This document shows positions 30,001 to 36,000 of a stretch of 64,000 nt of DNA, one piece after another. The stretch lies in the IMG/VR virus record IMGVR_UViG_2721755646_000010; one strand, 5' to 3'. Numbering within the stretch: the first letter of the stretch is position 1; each line of letters begins with the position of its first letter. A program made the position numbers. This DNA is from a virus (Duplodnaviria; Heunggongvirae; Uroviricota; Caudoviricetes).

Positions 30001-33000
30001 TGGTGTTTAATGAATTAAGCGTTACCGAACCGGCGACAGTCGGGGAGATTGCGCAGAATACTTACCTTTCACGCGAACGCTGCCAGTTAATACTGACCCA
30101 GCTGGTTATGGCGGGTCTGGCAGACTATCAGTGCGGTTGTTACAGACGCATTCAGTCCTGAAGGCTTTTTATTTGTGGTAAATGGGCGGCTGGTGGGGGG
30201 GGCGGCACCTGTCAGTCCTTTGCTTATGTGTTGATGATAATTTACCTTTTGGGGCTATAATTGAGCTAACCAATTGCTAATGAAAGTAAAATTATAATGG
30301 CTGTTGTCTGTTCAGTTATCATGGTTTGCTCCCCAATTAATATTTTTCTTGAAAAGGATACGTTGTCACTTAAGCCAGGCTCAGTCGTTCTGGCCACCAA
30401 ATGCATCAGGGAGCTTTTCCTTATGCATTATGGCAAAGTTAAAATTGTCGATATAAGCGAATCCGTCGTAAGTCAATATCTGGAAAGTCAGCATAAGCTG
30501 ACGAGGACTCGTCTGACTGACATTCCGCTTTACCTGTTGCTGGAACCCAACAATCCTGCGTTGGCTGCGGCTTTAATTACCAGCCAGGGATTTTCCGGAG
30601 AGGTCACGGATATGTTTCTTATGATGGCCTGCCTGTCTCTGTTTGAAACAGATGAACGGATGTCATTGTTTTTAAGTGGATGTTTATCCAGCATAAGTGC
30701 CAAAGTCAGGGCGATAATTCAGACAGATATATCAGCAAGCTGGACGCTTGGTGCGATTGCTCTACAGTTGCATATGAGTGAGAGTTTGTTAAAGACAAAA
30801 CTGAAAAATGAAGGGGGCATGTTCAGTCGCTTGTTGCTGGAAGAGCGGATGCGTGTTGCTGTAAATATGTTATGTTCCCGGTATGGATATGGACAGGCTG
30901 TAGCAGAAAAATGTGGTTATTCAAGCCGGTCCTACTTTATTTCTGTATTTCACCGCTATTATGGCTTCCCGCCAGACAGATATGTATCCAGGCAAGGGCT
31001 TGATTATTGATTTTCATCTGATTATTATTTTTTGGCTCGGCCCTTTAGCTCAGTGGTGAGAGCGAGCGACTCATAATCGCCAGGTCGCTGGTTCAAATCC
31101 AGCAAGGGCCACCATCACAAACCGCCATTAGCTTATCAGGAAGAGCAGACGACACCATAACAGGGTTGTTGGTGCGGGGCCGGGTCCCCGATGGCGGTCC
31201 ATTATCGGTATTCTGCGTTGTTAGCTCAGCCGGACAGAGCAATTGCCTTCTAAGCAATCGGTCAGTGGTTCGACTCCACTACAACGCGCCACACTTATTT
31301 TCCAGGCTCGCTTCGGCGGGCCTTTTTTGTATCTGCGCCACGCCCGGCGCATACCAACCACAGAGCCTTTCGGGGGTGAGCTTACGGAGTGGTCAGTGTG
31401 ACTTTCTCTGTGGGCAGATCGCTCCCGGGCGTTGGCTCACCCACCCAAAGGAACGTCACGATGTTTGGAATCTTCAAAAAGAAAACCCGCAGAGCGGCAA
31501 CGGAAATTAAAAAGTTTGAAAAACGCGATCTGGCACAGGTGGTGATTAACGCCGCATACCTGGTGGCCTGTGCAGATGGTGAATGTGAGGCATCCGAGAA
31601 AGCGAAGATCGAACAGGTACTGCGTAATCAGCCTGCGCTGTCCGCGTTTACGTCAGAAATTAATGCGATTAGCGCAACCATTATCGGTCAGCTGGATACG
31701 AACTTTAAAACTGGTCGTCGTGCGGCGTTACGTGAGATTGAGGATGTGAAACACGATACGCGTGAAGCGGAAGATGTGCTGGATGTGGCGGTGGCCATTG
31801 CGGAGGCAGACGGCGAAATTGAGCCGGAAGAGCGCAAGGTGCTGGAAGAGATTGCCGGTGTTCTGGGTCTTCGTCTGGAGAATCACCTGTGACGGTAAAA
31901 CTGCGCCTGGCTGTGGCTGCACTCCTGCTGTTTCTGGTGGTGATGGTGGATTTCACCAGCAGAATCATGTCGGTGCTGGCGGATGGGGTGCTGGTCTGCG
32001 GCATTGTGGTATTGCTGTGGCCGGTGATAAAAAGAAACAGCCTGCATAATGCTTGATTTTTTTGTTTGCTGTTTATTAAAAACACTTCTGCATGGTGAAT
32101 CCCCCTGTGCGGAGGGGCGATCAGCAACCAGGTATATGGGATAATCGCGGATTCAGGTGCTGATACTGAATTCACCGGGAGGCACCCGGCACCATGCTTT
32201 GCCACAAAAGTGTTGTTTCTGTTTTTCTCAAACTATCATCGTTATCCCTTTATTTCCGGCTGCGCATGGCGCGGCTTTTTTTTACGACCAGCCACTGGCA
32301 GATGGTCATCCTGTGATTTGATTCCGGTTCCGGCTTTTTAACTCTGTTCCTGTACACGGGAGAAATTCGATGTCGATTAAACATTATGATGTTGTCAGGG
32401 CGGCGTCGCCGTCAGACCTTGCGGAAAAGCTGACACACAAACTGAAAGAGGGCTGGCAGCCGTTTGGTAGTCCGGTGGCCATAACCCCTTATACCCTGAT
32501 GCAGGCGATTACAGCAGAAGGTGATGTGGTGGTCAGTGGTGCAACTGAGCCGGATTGGTACTACGTCATCGTACTGGCCGGGCAGTCCAATGCCATGGCT
32601 TACGGTGAAGGGCTTCCGCTGCCGGATTCATACGATGCTCCGGATCCGCGCATTAAACAGCTGGCGCGCCGCAGTACAGTGACGCCGGGTGGGGCTGCCT
32701 GCAGATATAACGATATTATTCCGGCCGACCACTGCCTGCATGATGTGCAGGATATGAGTACGCTGAATCATCCGAAGGCAGACCTGAGCAAAGGGCAGTA
32801 CGGCTGTGTCGGCCAGGGGTTACATATTGCCAAAAAACTGCTCCCGTATATCCCGAATAACGCGGGGATCCTGCTGGTACCATGCTGTCGTGGTGGTTCG
32901 GCATTTACCCAGGGCGCGGAGGGGATATTCAGCGAGTCCACGGGGGCCAGCCAGGATTCGGCGCGCTGGGGTGTGGGTAAACCGTTATATCAGGACCTGA

Positions 33001-36000
33001 TTGCGCGCACCAAAGCTGCATTACAGAAGAACCCGAAAAATGTGTTGCTGGCGGTGTGCTGGATGCAGGGAGAGTTTGACATGAGCGCCGCCACCCACGC
33101 ACAGCAACCTGCGCTGTTTACAGCCATGCTGACACAGTTTCGTGCTGACCTCTCCGTGTTTAACGCGCAGTGCCATGGTGGCAGTGCTGCAGATGTGCCG
33201 TGGATTTGTGGTGACACGACGTATTACTGGAAAAATACATACGCTACCCAGTACGACACCGTGTACGGCGGGTATAAAAACAGGGAGAGTGAGGGCGTTT
33301 ATTTTGTGCCCTTCATGACAGACGGTAACGGCGTCAATACCGCCACTAACGCGCCGGCAGAAGATCCGGATATTCCGGCATCAGGATATTACGGTGCGGC
33401 ATCGAGAACGAATGGAAACCAGGTATCATCAAACCGCCCGACACATTTCAGTTCATGGGCGCGCAGGAGCATTATTCCGGATCGTCTGGCAACCGCTATT
33501 CTGAACGCAGCCGGGCGCACCTCAGCCTTCATCAGTGGTAAGGCACCGGAAATCAAACCCTCGCCCGGCGGCAACACGCCATCGGGTCCGTCTGCAGATA
33601 CGTCCGTTCGCACAATCTCCCTGCTGCCGGCAGCCGGAGAGGCTGCTGCGCAGGGCTGGAGCATTAAGGATGGCGGAATTCAGTTGTCAGATGGTGTATT
33701 TAAGATCACCAGGCAGAGCAATAAAACCTGGTCCCTGACGCATCCGGTGGATGACGCAATTACCCTGCTGACACAGGGCGGCAGACTGACCTGTAAGTTC
33801 CGCCTGTCAGGCGCACTGACCAACAATCAGTTCGGGCTGGGGATTTATCTGTATACGGACGCTCCCGTTCCTGATGGTGTGGCGATGACGGGTACCGGTA
33901 ATCCGTTCCTGATGTCGTACTTCACTCAGACCACTGACGGCAGAGTGAATCTGATGCATCACAGGAAAGCCGGAAACACGAAGCTGGGGGAGTTCGGCGA
34001 TTACGGTAACGACTGGCAGACGCTGGAGCTGGTGTTCACCGCCGGCAGTGCCACGGTTACTCCGAAACTGAATGGAGTGGCTGGCCCGGCATTCCAGGTT
34101 ATAAAAGACAGTCTGACACTGGGACTGAATGCGCTGACGCTGACGGATGTTACAAAAAATGCAGCGTATGGCGTTGAGATAGAAAGTCTGATGCTGGAGA
34201 TAAATGCACCGGCAGCATAATAAAAAAAGCCAGCGACTGACCTGAAAAAGAAGACGCTGGCTAAAAGGCCTTATATGTTTGTAGAGACTTATTTTTCACA
34301 GACAGCAATGATGCCTGTCAATATATTATCAATATGCGGATTGTTTCAGTTACAGATGCTTTATTAAGGAAAAAAACAGCCAGCACTGACTTTCGGTGGA
34401 GAGGTGCTGGCTCAAAAGGATAGATGTACTTCACATGTTGCTTCTATATGGCAGTACATTTTCTGACAGACAGTGACGGATGTTGTCAAGATATTGTGTC
34501 ATTTATAACCTGAATCAGGGGGTGGCCGGAATGTTATCTGGCATTTTTAGCAGAGCCTGAATGCCATAATCACGGCTCCCGGCGTTGGCCGTCAGTGGGT
34601 GACACTGGCGGCTTTTTTGTTTTTCTTTACTTTCATTTTCTGTCGGCGGTGACGGAGACATACATCAGATGGAAAAAATCACAACAGGTGTGTCATACAC
34701 CACGTCAGCGGTGGGGACGGGATACTGGTTACTGCAGCTGCTGGACAAAGTCTCTCCGTCCCAGTGGGTGGCGATAGGCGTGCTGGGGAGTCTGCTGTTT
34801 GGGCTGCTGACATATCTGACGAACCTGTATTTCAAGATTAAAGAAGACCGGCGTAAGGCGGCGCGGGGAGAGTAAAGTGATGAAGAAAAAATACGAACTG
34901 GTTGTTAAAGGGATAAATAATTACCCGGATAAGATTACTGTTACTGTGGCACTGGAAATTGGTGGGTATCCGTCACTGTTGTTGCCAGATGTGGCGATTA
35001 GTCTTGACCGTACTGAAGGTGCCACGCTGGAGTTTTACGAAGCTGAGGCGAAAAAGCAGGCGAAGCAGTTTTTCATGGATGTTGCTGCCGGGTTATGTGA
35101 AGGGGATGGTCCGTTGCCGGAAAAGCGCCCCGTAATTTTAGAGGCGCAGGATGTGTTGATAACCTACAGAGGAAAACTACCGGGAATAATTACGGGTTCT
35201 CTGAAGACTCCACCGCTGGCCTGAAGACTTAACATATCCAGGGATTTGAAATCGATAAACCCTGATAAATATCCATGAACGCAAAAATCAGATACGGCCT
35301 GTCGGCTGCCGTTCTGGCGCTGATTGGTGCAGGGGCGTCTGCGCCTGAAATCCTCGACCAGTTTCTGGATGAAAAGGAAGGTAACCACACCACAGCATAC
35401 CGTGATGGTGCGGGTATCTGGACCATCTGCCGTGGAGCCACCCGGGGGGATGGTAAGCCTGTTATTCCTGGCATGAAGCTGTCGAAGGAAAAATGCGACC
35501 GGGTTAACGCCATTGAGCGTGATAAGGCGCTGGCATGGGTGGAGAAAAACATCAGAGTGCCGCTGACCGAACCCCAGAAAGCGGGGATCGCGTCATTCTG
35601 TCCGTACAACATTGGCCCCGGTAAGTGTTTCCCGTCGACGTTTTACAGACGGATTAATGCAGGAGATCGAAAAGGTGCCTGCGAAGCGATTCGCTGGTGG
35701 ATTAAGGACGGTGGCAGGGACTGCCGTATTCGCTCAAATAACTGTTACGGTCAGGTATCCCGTCGTGACCAGGAGAGCGCGCTGGCGTGCTGGGGAATCG
35801 ACAGATAAGCAGAATATTTTGCTGAAAAATGAGGTTTGCTTACATGGACGGATAACACGAAATCCTGCAAATTGGCAAAATGTAAGTGAATAAAGTCAAA
35901 ACAGTTGTTTAACACTCAGGCACCGTAATGATGCCTTTGTCATTTCTGCGCATCTCACGCGCATCTCACAACACAGAACCTTTCAGGATGACCCTTGAGG

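Follow-up and report, generated by a model that had tools for sequence, protein, structure and literature searches.

The stretch of DNA analysed here, referred to as the window, comprises 64,000 nucleotides from the IMG/VR virus record IMGVR_UViG_2721755646_000010 (Duplodnaviria; Heunggongvirae; Uroviricota; Caudoviricetes). The locus in question is the region around two tRNA genes near 31 kb, in which a TerB-family gene stands at the position of stxAB in the Shiga toxin (Stx)-converting phage 933W. A preliminary description, made from the sequence alone, had noticed two tRNAs (CAT and Arg-TCT) downstream of Q, followed by a TerB-like gene and then nanS-p, and this arrangement was borne out: ARAGORN called exactly these two tRNAs within the 64-kb window and Rfam RF00005 (gathering score 29) recognized both, whereas the two protein genes were recognized by PF05099 and by DUF1737, SASA and DUF6645, respectively, with a DUF3927 gene and an STnc100 RNA lying between them. 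From 5' to 3', the locus contains the following features.

29173–29739, plus strand: Q-like late antiterminator of the DUF1133 type (PF06576, 349 bits; PF06530, 33 bits; phrog_753 'anti-termination protein Q-like', E 6e-81; also by EDL933 annotation, where the PGAP start corresponds to 29185)
29811–29841, plus strand: terminator hairpin with U-run, ~75 nt past the Q stop codon (fold −18.2 kcal/mol, z −6.5)
29964–30161, plus strand: 65-aa hypothetical protein (phrog_331)
30297–31010, plus strand: AraC-family regulator (PF00165, PF12833; nearest NCBIfam models YdeO and GadX, both below cut-off)
31000–31028, plus strand: candidate tRNA promoter, sigma-70-like TTGATT-17-TATTAT (9 of 12 matches), 10 nt upstream of the first tRNA
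31039–31114, plus strand: tRNA-Ile2 of ileZ type, anticodon CAU, predicted to read AUA after lysidine modification (ARAGORN; RF00005, 72.5 bits)
31122–31201, plus strand: decayed argN homologue, a tRNA relic with acceptor, D and T stems kept and the anticodon arm replaced, colinear with 933W argN
31215–31291, plus strand: tRNA-Arg of argO type, anticodon UCU, reading AGA (ARAGORN; RF00005, 67.3 bits)
31304–31333, plus strand: terminator hairpin with U-run closing the tRNA module (−14.6 kcal/mol), the left edge of the cargo slot
31461–31892, plus strand: TerB-family protein of 143 aa, 'TciA' in phage annotations, cargo gene 1 (PF05099, 53.5 bits, cut-off 24.4; phrog_632, E 6e-68)
31889–32056, plus strand: DUF3927 small membrane protein of 55 aa, 'TciB', cargo gene 2 (PF13064, 62 bits; phrog_1470, E 4e-30)
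32061–32233, plus strand: STnc100-family structured RNA, the right edge of the slot (RF02076, 104.7 bits, gathering score 47, full model length)
32258–32284, plus strand: terminator hairpin with U-run past STnc100 (−12.9 kcal/mol)
32370–34220, plus strand: NanS-p-type prophage sialate O-acetylesterase of 616 aa (DUF1737, PF08410; SASA, PF03629; DUF6645, PF20350; phrog_143; GQSN motif in the translation)
34669–34875, plus strand: class II (P21-type) holin, start of the lysis cassette (PF04971, 113 bits)

The order of the locus would thus be Q, the leader terminator tR', a small open reading frame (ORF), an AraC-family regulator that is probably PsrB, a tRNA module, a cargo slot, the STnc100 RNA, nanS-p and the lysis genes. 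The tRNAs lie 1.3 kb downstream of the Q-like gene, with the 65-aa ORF and the AraC-family gene between. Each of the four proteins that were checked is matched exactly by a common E. coli protein, found on hundreds to about a thousand contigs. The locus is ordinary and, being part of a very intensively studied bacterial genome, already annotated in every gene, and the additions made here are the argN relic, the exact boundaries of the slot and a survey of its contents.

The window represents chromosomal DNA of E. coli O157:H7. The 6.3-kb region round the tRNAs and the TerB gene is 99.9% identical to positions 1903977–1910276 of O157:H7 strain EDL933 and 100% identical to E. coli O157 strain 180-PT54, and it is covered to at least 80% in 352 of 5426 complete E. 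coli genomes. Colinearity of the window with EDL933 is broken in the stretch 4873–10334 and holds from position 11026 onward. The EDL933 annotation describes a lambdoid prophage, bounded on the left by a truncated integrase and insertion sequence (IS) elements and carrying on its right side three NleG effector genes and a DinI-like gene, beyond which lies an interrupted ydfJ. O-island 57 (OI-57) has been described as z2048–z2151, including PsrB (z2104) as well as NleG2-3, NleG6-2 and NleG5-2 (z2149–z2151) at its right end (PMC8565820, PMC10877973); the annotated prophage agrees with this description, and the region is identified as OI-57/CP-933O. The gene at 30297–31010 is the sole AraC-family gene annotated in this prophage, and its homologues upstream of the same tRNA module elsewhere are ~90% and ~99% identical, as is expected for a PsrA/PsrB pair; by its position and the OI-57 markers, it is most likely PsrB. 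It is highly probable that the locus is the late-operon leader of an stx-negative lambdoid prophage, namely the ydfJ-integrated, right-hand prophage of the O157:H7 island OI-57/CP-933O, and that it contains a generic cargo slot.

The boundaries of this slot can be placed by comparison with phages that differ in its contents. Positions 31035–31339 of the window are colinear with ileZ-argN-argO of 933W and the terminator before stxA2 (87% identity over 309 columns; 305 versus 304 nt). On the left, homology to 933W ends at ~31339 and homology to loci with an empty slot at ~31331, both just past the terminator of the tRNA module. On the right, homology to 933W, to the Stx1a phage YYZ-2008 (NC_011356), to the non-Stx phage JLK-2012 (NC_049942) and to the empty-slot loci resumes at 32071–32076, the start of the STnc100 element, with 933W resuming at 32072 and YYZ-2008 starting at 32076. 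This point lies 95 nt past the stop codon of stx1B in YYZ-2008 and 87 nt past that of stx2B in 933W, in agreement with the reported location of STnc_100, 75 nt downstream of the stx2 operon (PMC12370729). In the empty-slot loci, the terminator ends at +41 past argO and STnc100 starts at +88, leaving a gap of ~46 nt. The core of STnc100 (GCAUGGUGAAUCCCCCUGUGCGGAGGGGCGA ... CACCGGGAGGCACCCGGCACCAUGC) is kept directly past stx1B, stx2B and tciB in different phages (L003 ~5001–5150; L004 ~4790–4925), where it forms the fixed right border of the slot.

The contents of the slot were surveyed in ~120 IMG/VR loci, taken among the matches listed, with ileZ and argO at this spacing and with exact matches in both tRNAs. 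Of the 96 loci that could be classified, the window and 933W included, 34 led straight to nanS-p, 12 contained Stx2, 20 TerB and 30 other cargo, and as the loci were selected by pattern among the matches listed, these proportions are indicative only. The other cargo includes, downstream of argO in other prophages (loci L015 and L027), small lipoproteins, singly or in pairs, that end in a TolA C-terminal domain (PF06519), as well as a protein of 108 aa without a family match; these add to the examples of envelope-related cargo at the toxin position. The placement of the two tRNAs in the stx-flanking position, as in Stx phages, is upheld by the colinearity with 933W, but the module is no marker of Stx, given the 12 of 96 loci with stx and a Stx1 phage that, when examined, had no tRNAs; ileZ and argO downstream of Q alone indicate neither a Stx phage nor the loss of a toxin. 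The interval from the tRNA terminator (~31333) to STnc100 (32061) would be a generic slot for accessory genes ('morons'), which in related phages is either empty or filled with stx2AB, the TerB-DUF3927 cassette or other small envelope-related genes. The TerB-DUF3927 cassette was most likely swapped in by homologous recombination through the conserved flanks. The toxin position can in this way be defined precisely, as running from the terminator of the tRNA module to STnc100, which offers a handle for cataloguing the cargo of lambdoid phages.

The likeness to a Stx phage devoid of its toxin, which the preliminary description had proposed after finding no stx remnant by eye, was likewise supported. 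Stx1A/B of YYZ-2008 and Stx2A/B of 933W were used as queries (tblastn, word size 2, E ≤ 100; blastn, word size 7). Against the whole window, the best tblastn match was a 30-aa segment at 55.5 kb, outside the locus, with an E value of 0.064; within 31300–32400 there was nothing better than E 30; and blastn with the stx loci matched only a 21-nt terminator stub after argO. The defining feature of a Stx-converting phage, stxA and stxB in the late operon, is absent, and the synteny of the late region (Q, tRNA module, slot, STnc100-like element, nanS-p, lysis genes) is present, the sequences to the left and right of the slot being colinear with homologous ones in 933W and YYZ-2008.

It is unlikely that the prophage is a former Stx-converting phage from which stx was lost, either by deletion or through replacement by the TerB cassette. 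Such a history is suggested by the flanks, both of which are those of Stx phages, and by the 97% identity of 32357–37254 to the O157 phage YYZ-2008 (99% in search matches from 32076 on), a near-identity by which a recent recombination partner was a Stx phage. However, no remnant of stx exists at the protein or DNA level, and the slot holds an intact, translationally coupled two-gene cassette whose junctions are the same in the non-Stx phages Evi (LR597642), JLK-2012 and PPyecE_EH1910 (LC567835). Most loci with this tRNA module are without stx, and the direction of exchange is not readable from one sequence. Moreover, the tRNA module is missing from the Stx1 phage in which the right flank is shared, so the two flanks differ in their history, as would be expected of mosaic prophages recombining within one genome. 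Nothing indicates that stx was ever present here, and the locus is a generic cargo slot, not a scar of toxin loss.

The first tRNA of the module is identical to 933W ileZ (76/76) and matches K-12 ileX at 68 of 76 positions, with a compensated acceptor-stem change among the differences, but K-12 metT/metU at only 54 of 77. As it is closer to ileZ/ileX than to metT/metU, the CAT tRNA is, judged by its sequence, an AUA-reading tRNA-Ile2 and not a tRNA-Met; PGAP labels it tRNA-Ile. Its acceptor stem, GGCCCTT/AAGGGCC, keeps C4-G69 and C5-G68, which are determinants for TilS. The second tRNA matches 933W argO at 73 of 77 positions and includes a compensatory double change in the T stem. The promoter-like site at 31000–31028 occupies the place, relative to the tRNAs, that the annotated pT has in 933W. 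The terminator past the last tRNA is kept in 933W, Evi and JLK-2012, and the 933W annotation lists it as possibly terminating transcription upstream of stx. The module thus appears self-contained, consisting of a promoter-like site, tRNA-Ile2(CAU), a dead argN, tRNA-Arg(UCU) and its own terminator, and with such a promoter-like site and terminator the tRNAs could be made constitutively. Its role is most likely to supply decoders for the rare codons AUA and AGA, which are used heavily by prophage genes. In 86 ORFs of the window, ATA, AGA and AGG occur at 11.0, 7.3 and 5.4 per 1000 codons, with the NleG effector genes among the highest, which is two to three times the averages of E. coli K-12 (~4–5, ~2–3 and ~1–2 per 1000, respectively) and is in keeping with a long-standing idea that these phage tRNAs serve in codon supply.

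In a 2026 preprint, tRNA hits near prophage small RNAs (sRNAs) were taken as remnants of integration hot spots, and hits near the prophage Pas/STnc100 sRNAs were reported in prophage regions only, not in bacteriophage genomes (10.64898/2026.05.13.724894). If applied here, the two tRNAs would be leftovers of a chromosomal tRNA integration site instead of phage genes, an explanation that is refuted by the colinear tRNA genes present in two free phages, 933W and Evi, and that has next to no probability. Both tRNAs are of full length and are situated centrally within the late operon, with ~13.8 kb separating them from the truncated integrase and ~31 kb from the ydfJ junction, and the tRNA(CAU) differs from the chromosomal ileX of K-12 at 8 of 76 positions. 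The tRNA hits near prophage sRNAs are therefore phage genes within the late operon (ileZ/argO), not integration scars. A literature search for ileZ, argN and argO together found no paper.

The 100 nt that separate the two tRNAs are not empty but hold the decayed and colinear argN homologue. This has a longer hairpin in place of, and unrelated to, the anticodon arm, and a T loop (CCGGGT) that is 6 nt in length and without TTC. No tRNA match to RF00005 was obtained for 31122–31201 at E ≤ 10, and when Rfam in E-value mode and ARAGORN were run on all 59 distinct spacers for a third functional tRNA, none was found for this form. ARAGORN called none of 35 relic copies (those of the IMG/VR sample together with the window and the EDL933 copy), versus 81 of 88 other middle elements, which were called tRNA-Arg(TCG). 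The earlier impression that a third tRNA is missing is thus correct for a functional gene and incomplete in that a relic of one is present. What varies among the relic copies is chiefly the length of a run of 5 to 14 G within the T arm; length variants, nearly all in this run, were seen in 7 of 33 analysable copies versus 0 of 33 for the flanking tRNAs, and a few acceptor-stem changes in some copies are without compensation. Substitution diversity (π 0.011, versus 0.008 and 0.036 for the flanking tRNAs) does not discriminate because the relic lineage is young, and only the excess of insertions and deletions argues for decay. The 121-nt stretch with the relic is found at an identity of at least 95% in ~1560 of the 5426 complete E. 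coli genomes (~29%), where the annotation by PGAP is limited to the tRNAs on either side.

The IMG/VR sample also contains a second argN lineage, which is decaying independently. Variants at the middle tRNA position include the canonical Arg(TCG), an argN homologue with a TTT anticodon (Evi; L128 4582–4658), one with TCT, and the two decaying lineages, one of them with poly-G length variation (IMG/VR loci L008–L127); this position is thus generally labile.

Persistence in so many genomes, together with a substitution diversity not above that of the flanking tRNAs and a sequence that can still be folded into a cloverleaf whose acceptor, D and T stems are intact, might suggest that the 80-nt element is a functional non-canonical tRNA-like RNA, such as a decoy for anticodon or tRNA nucleases or a processed small or regulatory RNA, rather than a pseudogene. 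The cloverleaf fold is, however, no better than that of shuffled sequences (z −0.42), and its low diversity would be accounted for equally well if the element had spread recently while lying between two tRNAs under selection. With the failure of both tRNA searches, the aberrant T loop, the length changes confined to the element, the uncompensated acceptor mismatches and the second decaying lineage also counting against it, a functional element is very improbable, and the element is read as a decayed argN. If it were functional, tRNA innovation would be taking place at the central gene of the phage triplet, as represented by Arg-TCG, the TTT variant of Evi and this form.

The cargo of the slot consists of two genes. 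AAAGGAA stands 7 nt upstream of the TerB ATG, and the GTG start of the DUF3927 gene overlaps the TerB stop codon (GTGA); this ribosome-binding site and the overlap of stop and start suggest that the two products form a coupled pair of a soluble protein and a predicted two-helix membrane protein, the DUF3927 translation having two hydrophobic stretches. The PHROG labels of the cassette are 'tellurite resistance' and 'TciB-like inhibition of cell division or resistance to colicin', and the names TciA and TciB in phage annotations presumably derive from tciA/tciB of phage P1. For TerB/DUF3927, NCBIfam gave only a sub-threshold similarity to DjlA.

With regard to expression, the hairpin at 29811–29841, which was read from the sequence, was missed by the pattern scan and is supported by folding, may be the tR' of the late promoter leader. 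Homology to PPyecE_EH1910, which has another Q gene, starts at 29829, and this marks the hairpin as the boundary of a Q-specific module. Late-promoter transcripts in the lysogen should end at this hairpin; on induction, Q-modified RNA polymerase would pass all three terminators, and through this psrB, the tRNAs, the cargo, nanS-p and the lysis genes would be expressed together.

Several points weigh against the reading of the locus as a late-operon leader with a generic cargo slot, in addition to the pattern selection of the survey. The promoter scan found nothing convincing of the sigma-70 type that could serve as PR' in the interval from the Q stop codon to the first terminator, nor upstream of TerB, and as a whole it gave 7 matches versus 6.2 expected in shuffled sequence, without enrichment. 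Since the integrase is truncated and adjoined by IS elements, induction-dependent expression may no longer occur in this prophage. The codon-supply role of the tRNAs is a matter of correlation only. As to the cassette, PADLOC gave only a 13.9-bit match for TerB/DUF3927 and no meaningful defence-system model; an envelope-related conversion (stress, colicin or superinfection resistance) is proposed with low confidence, by analogy with TerB-domain proteins and with the other slot cargoes.

Beyond the slot, the distance between STnc100 and sok (5490 nt in the window, versus 5496 nt in PMC5331693) matches this STnc100 copy with STnc100_6 of EDL933, and STnc100_6 has been reported at an RPKM (reads per kilobase per million) of 1897 in LB without induction (PMC5331693). 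The predicted esterase has the domain architecture of the NanS-p family (an N-terminal DUF1737, a SASA esterase domain with the GQSN serine motif and a lectin-like C-terminal domain) and its position between the stx slot and the holin; it is 53% identical in amino acids to L0105 of 933W, and its DNA is 97% identical to the esterase region of YYZ-2008. The occurrence of nanS-p in non-Stx prophages and its multiplicity in EDL933 have been documented (PMC10462455, PMC8065619), and the nanS-p alleles of EDL933 are reported to yield active esterases (review PMC8065619). The 448-nt spacer between nanS-p and the holin gene (34221–34668), within a stretch 97% identical to phage NC_011356, contains two strong terminator-like hairpins at 34525–34542 and 34587–34613. 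A 2026 preprint places the sRNA PasA in this phage (esterase-PasA-holin-lysozyme), and by its position the spacer of the window may contain PasA.

Just 3' of the lysis genes lies a gene for a PerC/Pch-family transcriptional activator (37728–38042; PF06069, 149 bits), and virulence regulators of the Pch and Psr types are thus both found on one prophage. The early region of the same right-hand prophage contains a DicF RNA (75 bits) adjoining dicB at 19310–19361 and a hok/sok toxin-antitoxin locus at 26571–26745, with a sok RNA of 113.5 bits. Among the tail genes of the left-hand prophage, within the stretch not colinear with EDL933, a P22 immI-like module was observed at 5226–6881.

5226–5480, minus strand: Arc-like ribbon-helix-helix repressor, part of the P22 immI-like module
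5935–6001, minus strand: sar antisense RNA (Rfam, 66.7 bits)
6003–6881, plus strand: Bro-N/P22_AR_C antirepressor, part of the P22 immI-like module

Among known systems, the Klebsiella TerB of the ter tellurite-resistance operon (PDB 2JXU) has the TerB domain in common with the cargo protein over nearly its full length (E 3e-7, residues 14–136), but the window is without the other ter genes (terZACDE), and the partner of TerB is here a 55-aa membrane protein.

The closest parallel to the order of the locus is the late region of the Stx2a phage 933W (AF125520), which reads Q, pR', ileZ-argN-argO, stx2AB, L0105/nanS-p and S R Rz. Common to both are the module order, the ileZ and argO genes, the terminator past argO, the STnc100-like element past the slot, and nanS-p followed by the P21-type holin, lysozyme, Ant and Rz. 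The two differ in the slot, which contains stx2AB in 933W and TerB with DUF3927 in the window, in argN, which is intact in 933W and decayed in the window, and in the type of the Q gene; in addition, only the window has psrB and the 65-aa ORF between Q and the tRNAs, as well as a DUF1327 (YdfR family) gene between the holin and lysozyme genes. The Stx1a phages of O157 (YYZ-2008; H-19B) share with the window the stretch from the STnc100 core onward, with nanS-p through Rz at 97–99% DNA identity, whereas stx1AB is placed directly upstream of the STnc100 core and the interval from Q to stx is without tRNA genes.

The contents of the slot are matched most fully in the non-Stx temperate phages. The upstream tRNA sets of these phages differ, being CAU, the argN homologue with the TTT anticodon and UCU in Evi, Asn, Thr and Gly in JLK-2012, and none in PPyecE_EH1910; Evi, unlike the window, is also without nanS-p. 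All three nevertheless carry the same two-gene cassette between the same left and right junctions at 90–91% DNA identity, JLK-2012 and PPyecE_EH1910 having the cassette and both flanks in common with the window, and Evi matching it through the tRNAs, TerB, DUF3927 and STnc100 at 90.7% identity over 1326 nt.

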